DNA from: Bacteroidales bacterium
GTDB lineage: Bacteria; Bacteroidota; Bacteroidia; Bacteroidales; UBA932
Assembly: GCA_015060405.1 (NCBI GenBank)
Contig: SUYN01000015.1
Span: 2,821 to 66,820 of the forward strand
DNA length: 64,000 bases
Direction: 5' to 3'
In this document: positions 1,770-59,486 of the stretch, piece by piece
How positions within the stretch are numbered: the stretch's first letter is position 1
Layout of the letters: every line of letters begins with the position of its first letter
Notes under the pieces: generated by a model
The model's input: the letters and a program-made list of their open reading frames with translations, nothing else
Database searches by the model: none
What the model was told of the DNA's origin: nothing
Translations under genes and position numbers: made by a program

Positions 1770-4700
1770 ATGAGAAGACTCCTGAACATATCAGTGCTCA
1801 TATTCATTTCCCTGGTGTCGTATGCCCAGGGAAATGTTGCCGTGCTTAAGGGAAAGGTGATAGATTCGTCCGATGGCTATCCGTTGGTCGGAGTGTCCGT
1901 CATAGTCACCGGAACTGAATACGGTATCACTACTGATGTTGACGGGTTCTATGAGCTAAGGATTCCTCAAGGGGAGTGCGAGGTGACTTTCTCGTACCTG
2001 GGCTACGATGACGAAGTCAGGGTATATACGGGGAAGAATGCCCAGTCCTTTTCGCGTATCGTGATGAGCATGAATACCGAACAGCTTGCCGATGTGGTTG
2101 TGACCGGTGTGTACGAAAGGAAGAAGGAAAGCTTTACCGGTGCATCAGCTACATTCAAGACTGACGAGCTCAAGGCCGTAGGATCTGCCAATGTCCTGCA
2201 GAGTCTCAAGACTCTCGACCCTTCCTTCAGAATGATGGAGAACACCAGGTTCGGATCCAATCCGAACATGATGCCTGACATCGAGATACGAGGCAAGACA
2301 AGCATCGCCGGCCTGAAGGAGGAGTATGGCACGGACCCTAACCAGCCGTTGTTCATCCTTGACGGATTCGAGACCACCTTGGAGACGATAATGAACCTCA
2401 ATATGAACCGTGTGGCTTCTGTGACCATCCTCAAGGATGCGGCCTCCACTGCCATATACGGTTCGAAGGCTTCCAATGGTGTTGTCGTCATTGAGACCAA
2501 GGCACCGTCCCGAGGCAGGCTCCGGTTGTCGTATAAGGGGGATTTCGGGCTCTCTGTGGCTGACCTTACCGACTATAACCTGATGAACTCAAGGGAAAAG
2601 CTTGAGTTTGAGGCGCTCGCGGGAGTGTACAAGGACAATTCCGGTGACCCTTTCGCACAGATCAGACTTGACAACCTGTACAATGAGAGACTCAAGGAGA
2701 TCGAAAGAGGGGTGGATACTTACTGGCTGAGCGAACCGGTGCGCACAGGTTTCACTCACAAGCATAATGTCTATGCCGAGGGTGGCGAGGATAAGATACG
2801 TTACGGAATCGGCCTCAGTTACGGTGAAGTGGCAGGAGTGATGAAGGACTCTGACAGAAGGACTCTGGAAGGGAATGTCGATCTCATATACCGCTCCGGC
2901 AAATTCCAGTTCAGCAACAAGCTGTCCATAAACTGGCTTGATGTGACCAATCCGGTGGTGTCTTTTGCCGAATATGCATACGCTAATCCGTATTACAGGA
3001 AATACAACGCTGACGGAGGAGTCGACAGGTATCTGTACTACCCGCAGGAAGGTGTGGATGATTATCCTGTCGCCAATCCTTTGTGGAACGCCCATCTGAA
3101 CAATTGGGACAAGGCCTCAGGCATGGGATTCACCAATAACTTCATATTCGAGTGGTTTGTCACAGAGGAATTCCGCTTCCGTGCGAAGTTCGGCCTCTCC
3201 AGGCAGGATGATGATGAGCAGATGCGCCTGTCACCGCTTCACACCCGTTTTGACGATATGGGAGAGACAGAGAAAGGACTGTATTCCCATACGCAGATCG
3301 ATGAATTGTCATATGAGGGCGACCTTGCCGCCACATTCGGCAAGGTGGTGGCGCAGAAGCACATGATCAATGCTGTGGGCGGCTTCAATTTCAGCAGCGG
3401 CAGCAGGGAGGTGTACGGCTACTCGGCAAACGGCTTTACAGATGACCGTTTTGATGCTCCCTCATTTGCAAACGGCTATCCTTCAGGCGGTTCGCCGGAC
3501 TATAGTGAAAGCCTGAAACGTGCCGCAAGTTTTTATGTGAACGGAGGATATGTCTACGATGAGAGGTACCTGATGGACTTCAACTACAGGCTTGACGGAG
3601 CATCCATGTTCGGAACGGGCAACCGTTTCAGGAACACATGGTCGGTGGGAACAGGCTGGAACATCCACAAAGAGCCGTTCATGTCCGGAGATGATTTCTT
3701 CTCGATGCTGAAGCTTCGTGGCTCGGTCGGCAATCCCGGCAATCAGAATTTTTCGGCGTACCAGGCCTTCTCCACATACAAGTTCAACGGATGGATGACC
3801 AATGTCTTCGGAACAGGCGTCATTCTCAATGCATTAGGAAATGCCGGACTTGCCTGGCAGGAGACTGTCAACTATGACATAGGTGCCGACATCTCTTTCT
3901 GGGGCGACAGGGTCAACCTGACTCTGGATTATTATTGGAAACATACCGATCCGCTTCTTGCCGTCATCACCACACCCGGTTCCATGGGTGTCACCAGCAT
4001 TGCGATGAATGCCGGAAGCCAGAAGACAGAGGGATGGGAGGCAGTATTCAGGATTTCACCGGTATACAGGCCTGCTGAGGGGATCAATTGGAACATAAGC
4101 ATCAATGCTGTCAGTTCGCGGTCCGAGTATGCCGACATAGGCGATTCATTCAGTGCGTTGAATGAAAGCGGCAAGACTTCGCTTGCAGGCACCACGAGGT
4201 ATTATGACGGAGGAAGCCCGACAGCCATCTGGGCTGTGCGGTCTGCCGGCATCGATCCGGCTACCGGAAAGGAGCTCTTCATAAAGAAGGACGGTTCATA
4301 TTCCTTTACATACGATGTCGATGATGAAGTGGTGGTCGGAGACACACAGCCGAGAATAGAAGGCCTTTTAGGTACGATGCTCTACTATAAGGGCCTGTCA
4401 CTTGGATGCTATTTCCGTTACAGATGGGGAGGCCAGGTGTTCAATTCCTCGCTTTTCCAGAAGGTCGAGAACATCGGGACCCAGGATGTATATAACAATC
4501 ATGATAAGAGGGCTCTCTATGACAGATGGTCCGAGAATAACAGGGAGGCATATTTCAAGGGCATCTCCATGGTGCAGAAGACCGAGAAGTCATCCCGTTT
4601 CGTCATGGATGACAATTCGATCGCAGGAGAGTCCTTCAACCTGGGTTACGAATTCCCTGACAGGATCGTCAGAAGGATGGGAATGGGTGCAATGAACATC

Positions 4701-4808
4701 CAGCTCATCATGACTGATGTCTTCAGGGCATCTACAGTCAGGGTGGAGAGGGGTATCGATTACCCGTTTGCCAGAAGTGTGACCATGTCGTTAGGCATAA
4801 CATTCTAA
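1770..4808 (+). CDS. SusC/RagA-family TonB-dependent outer-membrane transporter
   Basis: 1012 aa. Signal peptide, carboxypeptidase-regulatory-like domain (VLKGKVIDSSDGYPLVGVSVIVTGTEYGITTDVDGFYEL), plug region (ILKDAASTAIYGSKASNGVVVIETK), long barrel ending in aromatic F. A SusD-like gene follows 5 nt downstream. Confidence 0.93.
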   Translation: MRRLLNISVLIFISLVSYAQGNVAVLKGKVIDSSDGYPLVGVSVIVTGTEYGITTDVDGFYELRIPQGECEVTFSYLGYDDEVRVYTGKNAQSFSRIVMSMNTEQLADVVVTGVYERKKESFTGASATFKTDELKAVGSANVLQSLKTLDPSFRMMENTRFGSNPNMMPDIEIRGKTSIAGLKEEYGTDPNQPLFILDGFETTLETIMNLNMNRVASVTILKDAASTAIYGSKASNGVVVIETKAPSRGRLRLSYKGDFGLSVADLTDYNLMNSREKLEFEALAGVYKDNSGDPFAQIRLDNLYNERLKEIERGVDTYWLSEPVRTGFTHKHNVYAEGGEDKIRYGIGLSYGEVAGVMKDSDRRTLEGNVDLIYRSGKFQFSNKLSINWLDVTNPVVSFAEYAYANPYYRKYNADGGVDRYLYYPQEGVDDYPVANPLWNAHLNNWDKASGMGFTNNFIFEWFVTEEFRFRAKFGLSRQDDDEQMRLSPLHTRFDDMGETEKGLYSHTQIDELSYEGDLAATFGKVVAQKHMINAVGGFNFSSGSREVYGYSANGFTDDRFDAPSFANGYPSGGSPDYSESLKRAASFYVNGGYVYDERYLMDFNYRLDGASMFGTGNRFRNTWSVGTGWNIHKEPFMSGDDFFSMLKLRGSVGNPGNQNFSAYQAFSTYKFNGWMTNVFGTGVILNALGNAGLAWQETVNYDIGADISFWGDRVNLTLDYYWKHTDPLLAVITTPGSMGVTSIAMNAGSQKTEGWEAVFRISPVYRPAEGINWNISINAVSSRSEYADIGDSFSALNESGKTSLAGTTRYYDGGSPTAIWAVRSAGIDPATGKELFIKKDGSYSFTYDVDDEVVVGDTQPRIEGLLGTMLYYKGLSLGCYFRYRWGGQVFNSSLFQKVENIGTQDVYNNHDKRALYDRWSENNREAYFKGISMVQKTEKSSRFVMDDNSIAGESFNLGYEFPDRIVRRMGMGAMNIQLIMTDVFRASTVRVERGIDYPFARSVTMSLGITF

Positions 4809-4813
4809 GATTT

Positions 4814-6259
4814 ATGAGGAAGATATTGACATATATGACTTTATGTCTCATGTTATCCACCTCCTGTGATGTGTGGCTGGATGTGAAACCTTATGACAAG
4901 ATGTCTCAGGATGAGCTGCTTTCTGAAGAGGAAGGATTCATCAAGCTTCTGAACGGGATATACATAGAACTCAACAGCGATATGCTTTATGGCGGAGCCC
5001 TGTCTGTCGAGATGCTGGAAGTCATGGGAGGAGCATATATCATGGGTACAGACAAGTCGGTCTGGGGTAATTACATCGACCTGGCTTCATACGAATACGG
5101 AACACCATATTGGCGTGCGCGCCTTAATGAGACCTGGAACAAGGCCTATTCGCTCATTCTGAACTGCAATCTCCTCCTGGAGAACCTTGAGAAGGGCGGC
5201 GTTCGCTTTACAGGGGACAACTACAAGATAATCAAGGGAGAAGCTTTAGCACTCCGCGCCATGCTCCATTTCGACATGCTGCGCCTCTTCGGCCCGGTCT
5301 TCTCGCGTCATCCGGACCAGCAGGCCATCCCGTATTACAGAAAATGCTCTACTCTTCCCAACAGCCGGCTCACTGCCCGTGAGGTGGCTCAAGAGGTGAC
5401 GCATGATCTTCTGGAGGCCCGTATCCTTCTGGCAAACGATCCGATACGTACAGAGGGAACAATGACTGATGCCCCTTCGGACGGCTCTTCTGTATTCATG
5501 TATTATAGGAATCTCAGACTGAACTACTATGCGGTTACCGCTCTTCTGGCACGCTCAAGCCTTTATTTCGGTGATATGAAGTCAGCCTACGGCTACTCTG
5601 TCGAAGTCATCCGGGCTGCTGAGGAGGGTGTCTTCCCATTCGTGGACAGAAGTCTGGTGACCGGCTCGCCGGATGATCCCGACAGGATATTCTCGTCTGA
5701 AGTCATCTTTGCGCTTTCCCATTCTCAAAGGAACAGGCTCTTCAAGAATTATTTCGATCCCAGCCGCATTCCGAATTATGTGTTCCGTATGGACAATGAC
5801 CTGATGAGCAACAGGATCTTCGGGGGCGGGACGCTCACCGGAGGAAGCCAGGATGATTACAGGTATCGTGTCAATTGGGTGGCGACAGGTGCCAACAGGT
5901 ACTTCTACAAGTATGCAGATATGGTACAGACCGGAAATGTATGCAATACGATGATACCTATGCTCAGACTTGGGGAAATGTATCTCATCGCTGCCGAAAG
6001 CCGTTCCGAGGATATAGGCGCCGGCCTTGTGTATGTCAACAGGCTGCGTGCAAAGAGAGGGACCGGAGCGCTTCAGCAGCTCACCCGTGAGACCCTGCAG
6101 TATGAATATATCCGCGAACTGTATGGAGAAGGACAGCTCTTCTATATGTATAAGAGGATGTATTCTCCGATAATCTTCTCTGTCTCGGAGAATTCCAACC
6201 CTCAACCTGATGATGCAATATTCACTGTCCCTGTACCGGACACAGAAACTGAAAACTGA
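4814..6259 (+). CDS. SusD/RagB-family nutrient-binding outer-membrane lipoprotein
   Basis: 481 aa. Lipobox (LMLSTSC). SusD-type helical motifs (YSLILNCNLLLENL, ALALRAMLHFDMLRLFG, MIPMLRLGEMYLIAAES, LYGEGQLFYMYKR). Sits immediately after SusC. Confidence 0.9.
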   Translation: MRKILTYMTLCLMLSTSCDVWLDVKPYDKMSQDELLSEEEGFIKLLNGIYIELNSDMLYGGALSVEMLEVMGGAYIMGTDKSVWGNYIDLASYEYGTPYWRARLNETWNKAYSLILNCNLLLENLEKGGVRFTGDNYKIIKGEALALRAMLHFDMLRLFGPVFSRHPDQQAIPYYRKCSTLPNSRLTAREVAQEVTHDLLEARILLANDPIRTEGTMTDAPSDGSSVFMYYRNLRLNYYAVTALLARSSLYFGDMKSAYGYSVEVIRAAEEGVFPFVDRSLVTGSPDDPDRIFSSEVIFALSHSQRNRLFKNYFDPSRIPNYVFRMDNDLMSNRIFGGGTLTGGSQDDYRYRVNWVATGANRYFYKYADMVQTGNVCNTMIPMLRLGEMYLIAAESRSEDIGAGLVYVNRLRAKRGTGALQQLTRETLQYEYIRELYGEGQLFYMYKRMYSPIIFSVSENSNPQPDDAIFTVPVPDTETEN

Positions 6260-30416: not shown

Positions 30417-30485
30417 GGTCTTCCCCGGCCTGACCAATCGTCATCCCCGGCCTGACCAAACGTCATCCCCGGCCTGACCGGGGAT
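30417..30485 (+). repeat. Three tandem ~22-nt units ending in a complete hairpin (CGTCATCCCCGGCCTGACC...)
   Basis: Units are 'gtcttccccggcctgaccaat', 'cgtcatccccggcctgaccaaa', 'cgtcatccccggcctgaccggggat'. The last forms an 8-bp stem ATCCCCGG/CCGGGGAT (30465-30472 / 30478-30485) with loop CCTGA. Same element family as 59461-59486. Confidence 0.85.
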
Positions 30486-49408: not shown

Positions 49409-50410
49409 ATGATTTCTTACAAAGAACTTGGTCTTGTGAACACAAGAGAGATGTTCGCAAAGGCAATCGAAGGTGGTTATGCCATCCCTGCATTCAACTT
49501 CAACAACATGGAGCAGCTCCAGGCTATCATCTCAGCAGCAGCTGAGACTAAGTCTCCAGTGATCCTCCAGGTTTCAAAGGGTGCCCGTCAGTATGCAAAC
49601 CAGACTCTCCTCCGTTACATGGCAGAGGGTGCTGTGGAGTATGCAAAGGAGCTCGGCTGGGAGAATCCTCAGATCGTTCTTCACCTCGACCATGGTGACT
49701 CTTTCGAGACTTGCAAGAGCTGCATCGACATGGGCTTCTCATCAGTGATGATTGACGGTTCACATCTTCCATATGAGGATAACGTAGCTCTTACAAAGAA
49801 AGTGGTAGAGTACGCACACCAGTTCGACGTTACAGTCGAGGGAGAGCTCGGAGTTCTCGCAGGTGTCGAGGATGAGGTAAGCTCAGACCACCACACTTAC
49901 ACAAAGCCGGAGGAAGTCGTTGACTTCGTGTCACGCACTGGCTGCGACTCTCTCGCCATCTCTATCGGAACATCACACGGTGCCTACAAGTTCACTCCTG
50001 AGCAGTGTACTGTGGATCCTGAGACAGGTCTCCTCGTACCTCCGATGCTCGCATTCGACGTTCTCGAGGGTGTTGAGAAGGAGCTTCCTGGATTCCCTAT
50101 CGTTCTCCACGGCTCTTCATCAGTTCCACAGGACGAGGTTGCAACAATCAACAAGTACGGCGGTGCCCTCAAGGCAGCTATCGGTATCCCTGAGCCATGG
50201 CTCCGCAAGGCTGCCGAGTCTGCAGTATGTAAGATCAACATCGACTCTGACTCACGTCTCGCAATGACTGCAGCTATCCGTGAGGTCTTCGCAAACAAGC
50301 CGGCTGAGTTCGACCCACGCAAGTACCTCGGTCCAGCTCGTGACAACATGAAGAAGCTCTACATCCACAAGATCGTAAACGTTCTTGGTTCAGACGGAAA
50401 GGCAGAGTAA
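49409..50410 (+). CDS. fba: Class II fructose-1,6-bisphosphate aldolase
   Basis: 333 aa. 'AIPAFNFNNMEQ', 'VILQVSKGA', 'VLHLDHGDS', 'MIDGSHL', 'VEGELGVLAG', 'LAISIGTSHGAYKF', 'VLHGSSSVP'. Confidence 0.95.
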   Translation: MISYKELGLVNTREMFAKAIEGGYAIPAFNFNNMEQLQAIISAAAETKSPVILQVSKGARQYANQTLLRYMAEGAVEYAKELGWENPQIVLHLDHGDSFETCKSCIDMGFSSVMIDGSHLPYEDNVALTKKVVEYAHQFDVTVEGELGVLAGVEDEVSSDHHTYTKPEEVVDFVSRTGCDSLAISIGTSHGAYKFTPEQCTVDPETGLLVPPMLAFDVLEGVEKELPGFPIVLHGSSSVPQDEVATINKYGGALKAAIGIPEPWLRKAAESAVCKINIDSDSRLAMTAAIREVFANKPAEFDPRKYLGPARDNMKKLYIHKIVNVLGSDGKAE

Positions 50411-50431: not shown

Positions 50432-50477
50432 AGGCTGCCTGAAGTCGCTGATTCCTCAATCAGACTTCAGGCAGCCT
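50432..50477 (+). terminator. Terminator hairpin after fba
   Basis: 15-bp perfect stem AGGCTGCCTGAAGTC / GACTTCAGGCAGCCT, extended by an inner CTGATT/AATCAG stem, followed by a T-rich CTTCTGTTGCTCTT. Confidence 0.7.
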
Positions 50478-50493: not shown

Positions 50494-51368
50494 CGACACC
50501 CGTCTTGGAACAGGGAAGCTGCACCCAGGTGTACTTTTAAACGCCCCCCCCGGGTGCGCCAGTCGGTCTCTGAGTGCGGTCTGTGGCACTTCGCTGCCCC
50601 CTGGTGTGCTTTGATCCGACCCCCGGGTGCGCCAGCCGGCTCCTGAGCGCATTCCAATACACATCGCTGCACCTAGGTGTGCTTGTGACTGACCCCCGGG
50701 TGCGCCAGCCGATCTCTGAGTGCGGTCTGTGGCACTTCGCTGCCCCCTGGTGTGCATGTGAACGACGCCCGAGTGCGCAAGCCGGTCTCTGAGTGCATTC
50801 CAAGGCGTCTCGCTGCACCTAGGTGTGGTTGTGAACGACACCCGAGTGCGCCAGCCGGTCTCTGAGTGCATTCCAAGACACTTCGCTGCACCTAGGTGCG
50901 CTTGTGACTGACCCCCGGGTGCGCCAGTCGGTCTCTGAGTGCATTCTAAGACACATCGCTGCACCTAGACGTGTTTGTAAACGACACCCAGGTACGCTGA
51001 CCAGTGCCTGAGTGCGGTCTGTGGCACTGCGCTGCACCTAGGTGTGTTTGTGAACGACACCCGAGTGCGCCAGCCGGTCTCTGAGTGCATTCCACGGCGT
51101 CTCGCTGCACCTAGGCGTGTTTGTAAACGACCCCCGGGTGCGCTGACCGGTGCCTGAGTGCGGTCTGTGTCATGTTTCTGCACTCGGGGGGCTAAATGAC
51201 ACCCAGGTGCATAATTCGGCCCCTGAGCGCATTCCACGGCGTCTCGCCACACCTAGGCGTGTTTGTAAACGACGCCCGGGTGCGCAAGCCGGTCTCTGAG
51301 TGCATTCCAAGACACATCGCTGCACCTACGTATGCTTGTAAACGACACCCGGGTGCAACCTGAGTTCG
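50494..51368 (+). repeat. Tandem array 1 of a 73-bp repeat (11 full units plus a ~50-nt partial unit)
   Basis: The anchor 'ctgcacc' recurs at 50519, 50594, 50667, 50740, 50813, 50886, 50959, 51032, 51105, 51178, 51247 and 51320. Spacing is 73 nt, except 75 once and 69 once. The whole unit is conserved, so there are no unique spacers. The 3' segment comes in three variants (see findings). Confidence 0.95.
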
Positions 51369-51491
51369 GATATCTGTTAAAAAATCGACAAAACTTTAAA
51401 AATAAAGAAAAACTTGAAGAACCTTTTTTATAAGTCGATGATAATCTGATTCCATATCCATATATTTATCCCATTCAAATTATTCGTCAAT

Positions 51492-52397
51492 ATGAGTGAA
51501 TTATTGTTGAAGGACTTATTTGATGGGAACTTCTATCATATAAGCACAGAGGGGCTGGAGCAGGTTTCCTTACTGAAAGATGAAGAAGATTACAGGGTTG
51601 CATGGAACTATCTTGCGCTGGTTGTCTGGAAGACTGGTGTGGATATGCTGGCATTTGTCTTGATGTCCAATCACATCCATATGCTTCTGGCATGCCGTGA
51701 TGTAGAACAGGCCAGGAAGGCAGTATTCCTGTTCAAGCAATTGTTGTCGACGTATCTGAGAAATAGATATGGTCTCTCCCATGTGCTGCATGATTCAAGT
51801 GATTCGATTTCATTGATTGACTCCATGAAGTATCTGAGAAACTGCATTGCTTATATTTACAGGAATCCGATAAGTGCAAGAATATGTGCCTTGCCGGAAG
51901 AATACAGATGGTCCAGCTATAATTCCTGCTTTAAACCTTGTGCTGTATATGGCAATGCCAGGAAGGTGACAAATCTTAAATATCGGGAGAGACGCAAGGT
52001 CATGCATATCAGCGGGAATCTTTCAGAATGCCCTCTGCTCATAGATGATGAGGGATATGTGACATTGGATTCTTTTGTCAGAAACGATATCGTATCCAAT
52101 GCGTTCTGGAACTCCGGGAAGTCTCTTTTGTATCATATGGGCACTTGCAATGATGCAAAGACGGAGTACGAGCTGGTGTATCAGCCAATGATGGGGACCA
52201 CTGATAATGACATGTATGAAGTCGTCTCCAGGTATGTAGCTGCACGCTTCCAGAACAAGGCCATCTCTGAGCTGACTACGCCGGAAAAATGTTCTATACT
52301 CAAGACACTTTTCTTTAGCCATAAGACAACTGTGCCTCAACTCGCAAGAATCATTGGCTTGCCACGGGAACTTGTAAGGAAGATGCTTTTGCAGTGA
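51492..52397 (+). CDS. IS200-like HUH / Y1 transposase-family protein of the REP-associated (RAYT) type, with C-terminal HTH-like tail
   Basis: 301 aa. HUH motif in 'AFVLMSNHIHMLL'. Catalytic-Tyr region 'YLRNCIAYIYRNPISARICALPEEYRWSSY' fits the Y-x-x-x-NP ... W-SS pattern typical of RAYTs. C-terminal 'TTVPQLARIIGLPRELVRKML' looks like a helix-turn-helix. The sequence is visibly AT-richer than its surroundings (about one third G+C in the first 60 nt by my count). Confidence 0.8.
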   Translation: MSELLLKDLFDGNFYHISTEGLEQVSLLKDEEDYRVAWNYLALVVWKTGVDMLAFVLMSNHIHMLLACRDVEQARKAVFLFKQLLSTYLRNRYGLSHVLHDSSDSISLIDSMKYLRNCIAYIYRNPISARICALPEEYRWSSYNSCFKPCAVYGNARKVTNLKYRERRKVMHISGNLSECPLLIDDEGYVTLDSFVRNDIVSNAFWNSGKSLLYHMGTCNDAKTEYELVYQPMMGTTDNDMYEVVSRYVAARFQNKAISELTTPEKCSILKTLFFSHKTTVPQLARIIGLPRELVRKMLLQ

Positions 52398-52438
52398 TTT
52401 GCTTTCAGTATCCTTGTTGCGCACGTGTCACTGATACA

Positions 52439-53294
52439 ATGCACCTGGGAGTCATTTCAGTCAACCTCCAGGTGCATAATTCGGTCCCTGAGCGCATTCC
52501 ACGGCGTTTCGCTGCACCTGGGCGTGTTTGTAAACGACGCCCGAGTGCGCCAGTCGGTCTCTGAGTGCATTCTAAGACACATCGCTGCACCTAGGTGTGT
52601 TTGTGAACGACACCCGAGTGCGCAAGCCGGTCTCTGAGTGCATTCTAAGACACATCGCTGCACCTAGGCGTGTTTGTGAACGGCGCCCGGGTGCGCAAGC
52701 CGGTCTCTGAGTGCGGTCTGTGGCACTTCGCTGCACCTAGGTGTGCTTGTGAATGACACCCGAGTGCGCAAGCCAGTCTCTGAGTGCGGTCTGTGGCACT
52801 TCGCTGCACCCAGGTGTGCTTTGATCCGACCCCCGGGTGCGCTAACCGGTGCCTGAGTGCGGTCTGTGGCACTTCGCTGCACCTAGGTGTGCTTATGAAC
52901 GACACCAGAGTGCGCACGCCGATCTCTGAGTGCATTCCATGACACATCGCTGCACCTAGGTGTGTTTGTGAACGACACCCGAGTGCGCAAGCCGGTCTCT
53001 GAGTGCATTCCACGGCGTCTCGCTGCACCTAGACGTGTTTGTAAACGACACCCGAGTGCGCAAGCCGGTTCCTGAGTGCATTCCAAGGCGTCTCGCTGCA
53101 CCTGGGTATGTTTGTGAACGACACCCGGGTGCGCCAGTCGGTCTCTGAGTGCGGTCTGTGGCACTTCGCTGCGCCTAGGTGAGCTTGTGAATGACACCCG
53201 AGTGCGCAAGCCGGTCTCTGAGTGCATTCCACGGCGTCTCGCTGCACCCAGGTGTGCTTTGATCCGACCCCCGGGTGCGCTGACCGGTGCCTGA
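52439..53294 (+). repeat. Tandem array 2 of the same 73-bp repeat (11 full units plus a 52-nt partial unit), same orientation as array 1
   Basis: The anchor 'ctgcacc' (or a 1-nt variant) recurs at 52439, 52512, 52585, 52658, 52731, 52804, 52877, 52950, 53023, 53096, 53169 and 53242. Spacing is exactly 73 nt throughout. Confidence 0.95.
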
Positions 53295-53416
53295 TGGTTG
53301 TGTCAGGGAGCAGGTGTTGAGGTCTGGGAAATGCTTCAGGATGATGAGCAGGTGTGATGGTTAGGAAAATGCTGTCGGGTGAATGCTGTGTCCTGCTGGG
53401 GATGGGGTAGACAAAT

Positions 53417-53447
53417 AAAGGTCCTGACGGTTGGTCGGGACCTTTTT
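53417..53447 (-). terminator. Terminator-like hairpin downstream of ppa (possibly bidirectional)
   Basis: AAAGGTCCTGAC / GTCGGGACCTTT stem with one G-T pair and a 4-5-nt loop. T-runs on both strands (TTTTTCT on plus; TTATTTGT on minus). Confidence 0.6.
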
Positions 53448-53466: not shown

Positions 53467-54093
53467 TTATTTCCTGCTGGCTATGTAGTCGTCGTAGTCT
53501 TCCATTGCGCGGGTGATGACGTCTTTTGCAACGTCGGGGCCGTAGATGCTGATGAACTGCATGCGGCTCGTGTGCTCTCCAGGAATGTCCTTATAGGTGC
53601 TGAAGTAGTGGATGAGTCTGCGGATGATGTCTACAGGCACCTGCTCGATGTCCGTCATCATTCCATATACGGCATCGCTCTTGAGTACTGCTATGATCTT
53701 GTCGTCAGCCTGGTTGTGGTCGAGGAGACGGAGTCCTCCGATAGGGCGTGCGTTGACGATGATGTCTCCGTGAGTCACATCCTTTTCGGTGAGGATGCAG
53801 ATGTCTAGAGGGTCGCCGTCGCCGTCGACATCAAGACGGACGAGAGCCTTGTTAGTCAGTTCTGCCATCTTAGGACCGCAGTAGGTGCGTGGAAGAAAAC
53901 CGTAGAGGGACGGAACTATGTTGGAGAATTTCTGCGGACGGTCAAGAGACAGGTAGCCGGACTCTTTGTCCACTTCATATTTTACTGTGTCTGTAGGTAC
54001 GATTTCAATGAATGCCCTCACTTCTTCGGGCACGCTGCTTCCAAGGCTGATTCCGTGCCAAGGGTGTGCTTTGTGTGCGTTCTTATAATCCAT
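53467..54093 (-). CDS. ppa: Inorganic pyrophosphatase, family I
   Basis: 208 aa. 'FIEIVPTDTVKYEVDKESG' and the metal-binding 'DGDGDPLDICIL'. Confidence 0.9.
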   Translation of the reverse strand: MDYKNAHKAHPWHGISLGSSVPEEVRAFIEIVPTDTVKYEVDKESGYLSLDRPQKFSNIVPSLYGFLPRTYCGPKMAELTNKALVRLDVDGDGDPLDICILTEKDVTHGDIIVNARPIGGLRLLDHNQADDKIIAVLKSDAVYGMMTDIEQVPVDIIRRLIHYFSTYKDIPGEHTSRMQFISIYGPDVAKDVITRAMEDYDDYIASRK

Positions 54094-59096: not shown

Positions 59097-59486
59097 CGTC
59101 ATTTACGTCATTCCGTCCCTCATCGTCATTCCCGGCCTTCATCGTCGTTCCCGGCCTTCATCGTCGTTCCCGGCCTTCATCGTCATTCCGTCCCTCATCG
59201 TCATTCCCGTCCCTCATCGTCATTCCGTCCCTCACCGTCATTCCCGTCCCTCATCGTCATTCCGTCCCTCATCGTCATTCCATCCCTCATCGTCATTCCC
59301 GGCCTTCTTCGTCATTCCCGTCCCTCATCGTCATTCCCGGCCTTCATCGTCATTCCCGGCCTTCATCGTCATTCCCGGCCTTCATCGTCATTCCGTCCCT
59401 CATCGTCATTCCGTCCCTCATCGTCATTCCCGTCCCTCATCGTCATTCCCGGCCCTCATTGTCATTCCCGGCCTGACCGGGAATCC
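59097..59486 (+). repeat. About 20 tandem copies of an 18-19-bp unit (CATCGTCATTCC[C]G[GT]CC[CT]T), ending in a complete hairpin element
   Basis: 'gtcatt/gtcgtt' recurs at 59107, 59125, 59144, 59163, 59182, 59200, 59219, 59237, 59256, 59274, 59292, 59311, 59330, 59349, 59368, 59387, 59405, 59423, 59442 and 59461. The last copy continues into an 8-bp stem ATTCCCGG/CCGGGAAT (59464-59471 / 59477-59484) with loop CCTGA. Degenerate copies extend back to about 59050. Confidence 0.9.

Follow-up and report, generated by a model that had tools for sequence, protein, structure and literature searches.

A probable REPtron-type locus in Bacteroidales: a RAYT-like Y1 HUH gene between two arrays of 73-bp hairpin units

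A 64,000-nt stretch of a Bacteroidales genome (assembly GCA_015060405.1, contig SUYN01000015.1; hereafter the window, whose positions are used below) contains, between the housekeeping genes fba and ppa, a 301-aa open reading frame (ORF) enclosed by two arrays of a 73-bp unit, both in the same orientation and each comprising about 12 hairpins. The block is interpreted here as a probable Bacteroidales locus of the REPtron type, that is, a gene at a fixed chromosomal site, inherited vertically, whose RAYT-like Y1 HUH product is presumably a single-strand-DNA endonuclease/strand-transferase and which is bracketed by clusters of cognate hairpins that resemble repetitive extragenic palindromes (REPs). 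Tandem Repeats Finder (TRF) recovered the 73-bp period on both sides of the gene, with 11.5 copies and 73% matches on the left (50518-51356) and 10.9 copies and 83% matches on the right (52482-53280); with a further, diverged unit at 52438-52510, the right array comprises 12 hairpins. A 16-mer of the unit, with at most three mismatches allowed, occurs 22 times in the window, always on the + strand and always inside the two arrays, while shuffled sequence yielded 0.43 matches and no shuffle attained 22. An earlier inspection made without database searches (the sequence-only reading) had claimed two same-orientation 73-bp arrays between the terminators of fba and ppa, and the TRF periods, the register of the units and the + strand hairpins bear this out. 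In GC content the arrays (~60%) exceed the neighbouring genes (~52%), whereas the gene with its leader (36-46%) falls below them.

The segment 49409-54093 is reproduced at 99.9-100% identity by two ENA contigs (L074 and L078; compared contigs and loci carry L numbers) and three JGI contigs (L075-L077), all of which come from other samples and are independent assemblies. The only gap across the segment in these five assemblies is one of 1 nt, in L075. Since five independent assemblies agree, the block is not an assembly artefact, and that explanation was rejected. The window sequence is identical to L074 and L078, and L040 (GCA_052843635.1), which is used below, represents a different strain.

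Placed in register, the unit reads GCACCTAGGTGT, an 11-nt loop (GTTTGTGAACG), ACACCCGAGTGC and then a linker, amounting to an imperfect hairpin of ~35 nt followed by ~38 nt of linker. The sequence-only reading had listed a perfect palindrome, CACCTAGGTG, and a CCCGGG or CCCGAG site as separate elements of each unit. Both motifs are real, but CACCTAGGTG and the CCCGRG motif are the 5' and 3' arms of one and the same imperfect hairpin. Because this hairpin is of REP size, the unit is best described as a REP-like hairpin plus linker and not as a different kind of repeat. Nine or ten of 12 stem positions pair, an internal CTA/GAG mismatch is conserved, and compensatory GGCGT/ACGCC changes are present in some units; the loops in the window are all TTTGTGAACGA-like. 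Variant units occur at 51177-51245 in the left array and at the start of the right array, where the best hairpin spans 52439-52477. Folding of a 363-nt array stretch as single-stranded DNA gave long-range pairings between units (z = -3.0), a result of little use for judging the single hairpin.

The product of the gene (P0247; MBE6236110.1, labelled 'hypothetical protein [Bacteroidales bacterium]' by NCBI) is a RAYT-like Y1 HUH protein. Its catalytic domain (approximately residues 1-145) contains the motifs SNHIHML and AYIYRNP...YRWSSY, with the HUH histidines His61 and His63, Tyr121, Asn125 and a WSS at 140-142. His61, His63, Tyr121 and Asn125, the latter two in a Y-x-x-x-N arrangement, are invariant across 66 aligned sequences, and the WSS follows the tyrosine helix. 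The NCBIfam model REP_Tyr_transpos (NF047646) was matched over positions 8-146 of its 146 positions with E=2.5e-10, at 40.4 bits against a curated cut-off of 80. The Y1 profile match anticipated by the sequence-only reading was found in Pfam Y1_Tnp (PF01797; E=1.5e-4), yet at 22.3 bits it stays under the cut-off of 23. Scores under the curated cut-offs indicate that the window protein is a distant RAYT relative and not an equivalog. The transpos_IS200 model scored 14.5 bits against a cut-off of 55. Among the aligned relatives, REP_Tyr_transpos was matched by all 66 (E<=1e-3, best 3.5e-15) and transpos_IS200 by 13. The AlphaFold2 model of the protein (pLDDT 86) had as its best Foldseek match the structure of Escherichia coli TnpAREP with a REP hairpin (4er8_A; E=2.1e-5, TM(target) 0.65), followed by the TnpA structures of IS608 and ISDra2, and a whole-protein sequence search of the PDB gave marginal matches to Y1 transposases around the HUH motif only. 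The claim of a RAYT-type HUH ORF therefore holds, on the Y1_Tnp and REP_Tyr_transpos matches, the top structural match to 4er8 and the fit of the RAYT model to all 66 relatives.

A second conserved domain (approximately residues 150-301) ends in a segment resembling a helix-turn-helix (HTH). Searches of Pfam, NCBIfam and the PDB returned no match to this domain beyond weak HTH ones, given by Pfam for a few family members, and a profile of the C-terminal half found no credible match in the PDB. More speculatively, the domain probably adds binding of double-stranded DNA or of a partner, and it possibly autoregulates the gene at the palindrome in the AT-rich leader (Table 1).

Table 1. Features of the fba-ppa interval and its neighbours in the window.
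Feature	Coordinates	Strand	Basis
fba, class II fructose-bisphosphate aldolase, left neighbour	49409..50410	+	ORF; Pfam F_bP_aldolase on the same gene in L040
Terminator-like hairpin of fba (GGCTGCCTGAAGTC...GACTTCAGGCAGCC)	50433..50476	+	Read directly from the sequence
Left array, 12 units of ~73 bp, the last stopping at the hairpin foot	50518..51357	+	TRF; units in register
AT-rich leader, presumed promoter, GC 36%, 134 bp	51358..51491	+	Function inferred
AT-rich inverted repeat within the leader	51397-51433		
RAYT-like Y1 HUH gene, 301 aa	51492..52397	+	
Right array, variant first unit and 11 units of 73 bp, ending in linker (...GCTGACCGGTGCCTGA)	52438..53294	+	
G-rich spacer 3' of the right array	53295..53419	+	
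Bidirectional terminator-like hairpin, GGTCCTGAC-GGTT-GGTCGGGACC then TTTTT	53420..53447		Read from the sequence; inferred
ppa, inorganic pyrophosphatase, right neighbour	53467..54093	-	

Relatives of the window protein are encoded at 39 genomic loci in metagenome-assembled genomes (MAGs) of Bacteroidales and Ca. Cryptobacteroides, mostly from animal guts; those with 44-100% identity are nearly all flanked by hairpin doublets on both sides. A profile search of 1.84 billion representatives returned at least 164 clusters at 50% identity with E<1e-30, and since most of these are full-length (285-315 aa), the two-domain architecture defines a sizeable, unnamed family. In the large majority of 38 loci compared, direct repeats of ~106-114 bp stand on both sides of the gene (78-100% identity, mostly >90%), and each consists of a hairpin, a ~38-nt linker and a second hairpin. 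The sequences of these hairpins are lineage-specific and their spacing is a constant 72-73 nt, even among proteins as little as 44% identical. With a covariance model trained on 25 lineage-specific hairpins, +/- pairs at this spacing of 72-73 nt were recovered to either side of the gene in most relatives, and three control loci gave zero matches; in the window, the family model (R1) matches 9 of 12 left-array and 12 of 12 right-array hairpins, on the + strand. From lineage to lineage the stems change their sequence entirely yet keep their pairing: over all 25, paired cells make up 95.6% of the stems, and compensatory double changes occur in 10 of 11 pairs, a level of covariation reached by none of 500 shuffles. 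It should be noted that the hairpins entering these statistics were chosen by a hairpin finder, though at sites that the flanking repeats had defined without it. Stem sequence changes along with the lineage of the protein. Further, paralogues within one MAG carry differing hairpins (L003/L007, L002/L008 and L004/L020), with one gene per hairpin type per MAG, as counted in MAG assemblies and not in complete genomes. The ground plan of the family is doublet-gene-doublet, and in the clade of the window (window, L003, L046 and L056) the hairpins are uniformly oriented and repeated further. In L026, a hairpin at 3538-3570 has its loop reverse-complemented in place relative to L017 3538-3570 and to L026 5908-5940, with identical stems and 37 of 37 matches in the inverted orientation. 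Hairpin orientation can therefore flip through inversion of the loop, which may explain why some doublets are uniform and others inverted.

The gene order gmk-fba-gene-ppa-C_GCAxxG-relA is common to the window, L001-L005 and L029, in which the RAYT-like proteins are 60-80% identical and fba and ppa 92-98% identical. In all, the gene occupies the fba-ppa site in at least seven species-level lineages, at 60-100% protein identity, and the orthologous gene has fba on its left in L002, L004, L005, L046, L048, L056 and others. This conserved synteny marks the gene as an old resident that has been passed on vertically and did not arrive by recent insertion. Among the changes that separate strains within the gene, synonymous ones predominate (6 to 1 and 6 to 2). 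An empty fba-ppa site was sought through homologues of ppa, among which synteny is already lost at 82-84% ppa identity.

At this fixed position the arrays vary. Compared with the window (11.5 units upstream, 10.9 downstream), L064-66 have 12.5 and 6.6 units, L040 has 33.4 and 11.9, and L041, covered on its downstream side, has ~4 there; the 33.4-unit array of L040 (7435-9865, 2.4 kb) is the largest observed. Between strains the differences amount to 1, 4, 8 and 22 whole 73-bp units, while ppa remains at least 99.4% identical and the array boundaries and neighbouring genes are almost identical. The strain comparison suggested by the sequence-only reading thus shows the block in five assemblies, and arrays that differ by whole units in further strains. 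The arrays explain breaks in short-read assemblies of these genomes and could serve as strain markers.

Such variation is also what might be expected of ordinary minisatellite DNA, a variable-number tandem repeat shaped by slippage and unequal crossing-over in which the protein plays no part. The order of the units is mosaic, a block of four units (291 bp) is duplicated in L064, and in the same strain a 38-bp piece of the G-rich spacer (53295-53419), outside the array, is duplicated as well. Additionally, an unrelated 19-bp repeat is present in 19.6 copies at 59106-59470 of the window, so this genome tolerates tandem repeats. However, a module of hairpin, linker and hairpin with 72-73-nt spacing flanks nearly every member of the family down to 44% identity, and its stems co-vary with the protein, which would be unexpected for incidental satellites. 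As an account of the block as a whole, a protein-independent minisatellite is therefore improbable; slippage may instead be the expansion step within a REPtron-type locus.

A second alternative takes the block to be an autonomous insertion sequence of the IS200/IS605 type, with tnpA and end hairpins, that has entered the fba-ppa interval. The Y1 HUH fold and the same-strand hairpins on either side of the gene, as in IS608, would suit such an element, as would base composition: the GC content of the gene is below that of its surroundings in 30 of 30 loci examined (e.g., L003, L012 and L007), by a mean of 7 points, despite long vertical inheritance. Against this stands the shared fba-ppa location of the gene in seven or more species-level lineages, which indicates that the element is not mobile as a unit. 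Moreover, the repeats on the two sides duplicate one another and are not distinct left and right ends, and the hairpins are tandemly repeated; there is no tnpB; the RAYT model fits the family better than transpos_IS200; and each MAG has one gene per hairpin type. The insertion-sequence reading is very improbable and was set aside on the synteny and the identical ends.

The arrays could also be imagined to act as RNA, as transcribed structured repeats (a CRISPR-like, small-RNA or attenuator array) tied to the protein. A ~35-nt palindromic repeat at a 73-nt period resembles CRISPR geometry, pairs of the G-U type occur at several stem positions, and the hairpins all lie on the strand of the gene. 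However, the 38-nt linkers recur as two or three types, none of them unique to a unit, the neighbours are housekeeping genes with no cas genes nearby, and there is no Rfam match and no PADLOC match. Known Y1 HUH enzymes, furthermore, work on single-stranded DNA. The recurring linkers, together with these negative searches, rule out a CRISPR-like array, and an RNA role in general is highly implausible. Scarcely credible is the view that the block derives from a rolling-circle plasmid or mobilisable element that integrated here and left behind an HUH Rep or relaxase with its iterons or origin: Reps and relaxases do use HUH chemistry, and origins typically carry iterated binding sites, but the structural matches are to Y1 transposases and RAYT and not to Rep or relaxase, there are no other mobile-element genes, and housekeeping synteny is kept on both sides.

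The REPtron-type reading is that which best accommodates these observations, and it makes the arrangement a Bacteroidales version of the REPtron and of the bacterial interspersed mosaic elements (BIMEs), as described in E. coli and Pseudomonas, and no new type of element. In the E. coli REPtron (Ton-Hoang et al. 2012, PMC3333891), a single Y1 HUH gene likewise stands at one fixed chromosomal site and is bordered on both sides by cognate REP modules in variable number. BIME-2 modules are tandem and their number varies between strains (PMC3333891), as do the arrays of the window species by whole multiples of 73 bp. Both systems have imperfect hairpins with conserved mismatches, and the closest solved structure to the window protein is the E. 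coli one, 4er8. Similarly, Pseudomonas fluorescens SBW25 (Bertels & Rainey 2011, PMC3116915) has several RAYT paralogues per genome, each with its own REP type, clusters of REP doublets (REPINs) beside every RAYT gene, and tandem arrays in which as many as 12 REPs follow one another at even spacing; its basic unit is the doublet, and most Bacteroidales relatives likewise have +/- hairpin doublets. The view of the sequence-only reading that the architecture matches no described element consequently fails against the E. coli REPtron and BIME-2 and against the REPIN clusters and 12-copy REP arrays of SBW25.

Several observations weigh against the REPtron-type reading. First, neither the Y1_Tnp nor the REP_Tyr_transpos score reaches its cut-off. 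Second, the published W motif of TnpAY1 subclasses is absent from the protein, which at ~300 aa carries an extra domain of ~150 aa, and such a domain is not described for REP-associated subclasses (PMC6006769). Third, the hairpin feet read GCAC.., CTCAC.. or GTGC.., and the canonical 5' GT[AG]G foot (GTAG in E. coli) is absent; another conserved motif, roughly CAyATyGCy as judged by eye, precedes the second hairpin. Fourth, all hairpins in the window score best on the + strand, so that they do not form inverted REPIN pairs there, unlike the alternating y/z2 inverted pairs of E. coli. Fifth, the mosaic order of units and the duplicated block in L064 could be explained by homologous recombination alone. 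Sixth, scans with the 16-mer and the covariance model found no hairpin copies in the other ~61 kb of the window, compared with ~8-13 expected at an E. coli-like (~8) or SBW25-like REP density, and 397 kb of related loci contained one weak match well away from a family gene (L016:183, E=3.8e-4); high-copy dispersal, a hallmark of REPs, is therefore unsupported. The locus departs further from the E. coli REPtron in its fixed centre-to-centre spacing of 73 nt and in arrays of up to 33 units, and from SBW25 in its phylum (Bacteroidota) and protein subclass and in where its repeats lie, as the SBW25 arrays are mostly away from RAYT genes and its REPINs number in the hundreds, whereas the repeats of the window family are apparently concentrated at the gene.

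Hairpin modules of the same spacing lie beside family genes in relatives. A scan of metagenomes returned two gene-bearing contigs and solo doublets, with hairpins 73 nt apart, at L059/L063 (confirmed) and L061 (possible); the doublet of L059/L063 is gene-less over 0.37 kb on its upstream side and 2.6 kb on its downstream side. Dispersed copies in other intergenic contexts therefore exist in relatives. The metagenome collection is incomplete for this organism, as JGI contigs of the same strain were not returned by it, so a lack of matches there cannot mean a lack of dispersed copies. A protein search with a pseudo-ORF encoded by the array, intended to locate arrays elsewhere, gave no match. A second, unrelated hairpin repeat family (GCGACGCAGG...CCTGCGTCGC) was observed in L007 (7213-7467; 72-bp period, 3.5 copies) and also adjoins the solo doublet in L061 (1085-1205), indicating that these genomes hold more than one REP-like family.

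The closest published descriptions of the protein are found in class 2 of TnpAY1 (PMC6006769), in particular subclass 2.6, from Bacteroidetes, with 'atypical secondary structures' and an SS motif, and subclass 2.1, with a C-terminal HTH/DnaA_C and no REP. The window family shares with these the NH[ILV]H form of HUH, the YIxxNP tyrosine motif, the WSS after the tyrosine, a Bacteroidota host, and flanking atypical hairpins that lack GT[AG]G. It is unlike them in length (301 aa, compared with medians of 179 for 2.6 and 238 for 2.1) and in the absence of the W motif. In the survey of Quentin et al. 2018 (PMC6006769), flanking REPs and a large C-terminal domain are alternative features that belong to different subclasses; compared by published descriptions, the window family unites the two. 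A further interpretation can be entertained tentatively, though it is on balance unlikely: the ~300-aa two-domain family would be an undescribed subclass of Y1 HUH proteins whose 73-nt-phased modules amplify mainly in cis and not genome-wide, giving a hypervariable, strain-specific array (4-33 units) with a host function unlike REPIN mobilisation. If such cis-amplification were real, the arrays might sequester the enzyme in a self-limiting manner, contribute to its autoregulation, or act as a structural element or insulator separating the convergent housekeeping genes.

A mechanism for a REPtron-type locus can be proposed by analogy with E. coli TnpAREP and IS608 TnpA. TnpAREP is known to assemble tandem BIMEs by strand transfer in vitro (PMC3333891), and IS608 and ISDra2 share with the window locus the Y1 HUH fold, subterminal same-strand hairpins on both sides of the gene and, presumably, single-strand chemistry. 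The proposal builds on what sequence and comparison provide (the catalytic residues, the hairpins and their placement on both sides, the co-variation of stems, the position between fba and ppa, and the whole-unit changes of the arrays) and on the fold of the AlphaFold2 model. By this analogy, the protein would recognise the folded hairpin on transiently single-stranded DNA and cleave in or beside the linker through an HUH-bound metal and Tyr121; strand transfer between adjacent units would then gain or lose 73-nt modules. Unequal recombination or replication slippage between units almost certainly contributes too, as the duplicated four-unit block of one strain shows, and unequal recombination could even suffice. 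In this manner, an ancestral doublet of 1.5 units per side may have grown into the arrays of 4 to 33 units of the window species.

To our knowledge, RAYT/REP systems have so far been worked out almost entirely in Proteobacteria. The locus described here extends the RAYT/REP paradigm to abundant uncultured gut Bacteroidales and bears on the standing question of what such a domesticated enzyme does for its host. Strains whose loci are nearly identical except for the size of the arrays (4 to 33 units) offer a natural system in which to ask if a Y1 HUH enzyme assembles tandem arrays in vivo. The series of co-varying proteins and hairpins over dozens of lineages could be used to map the determinants of recognition, and the strictly kept spacing of 73 nt hints at how two hairpins are engaged simultaneously.

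The surroundings of the family genes show additional regularities. The leaders of many family genes carry an AT-rich inverted repeat, which in most of the loci that yielded one precedes the gene by 57-139 bp. Examples are the window (51397-51433) and, at about 57-100 bp, L010, L012, L017, L018, L019 and L021 (e.g., AAAAAGAAAAAT...ATTTTCTTTTT and TATAAAATAAATTTT...AAAATTTATTTTA), and this leader repeat could be an operator for the C-terminal HTH. The downstream hairpin begins 4-13 nt past the stop codon in L004, L006, L010-L013, L017, L018 and L027, and 42 nt past it in the window; at such short distances the hairpin could terminate the transcript, stabilise it, or influence how translation of the gene itself terminates. 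In some loci the upstream doublet is 1.3-1.5 kb from the gene, with unrelated genes of the opposite strand between them, namely an ECF-sigma-like gene and a membrane protein in L011 (3700-4800) and two small membrane proteins in L017 (3850-4800). Low-complexity, pyrimidine-rich tracts of TTTCCC repeats stand just outside the left repeat in L046 (9492-9640) and L056 (744-815).

Elsewhere in the window, the terminator-like hairpin of fba, which was read by eye, is absent from the output of a simple terminator scan. The 19-bp repeat mentioned above is pyrimidine-rich (CGTCATTCCCGTCCCTCAT / ...CCCGGCCTTCAT), takes up the intergenic space from uvrB (-) to a GH2 gene (+), and has a small hairpin, GTCATTCCCGGCCTGACCGGGAATCC, at its end; a related 22-bp repeat, GTCATCCCCGGCCTGACCAAAC, is present in 2.8 copies at 30418-30479. 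Finally, a homologue of 31% identity (L039) is accompanied by arrays of another module at 3948-4766 and 5901-6026, with a 41-bp unit and a higher-order period of 258 bp, and its two flanks share long repeats of up to 251 bp at 92% identity.

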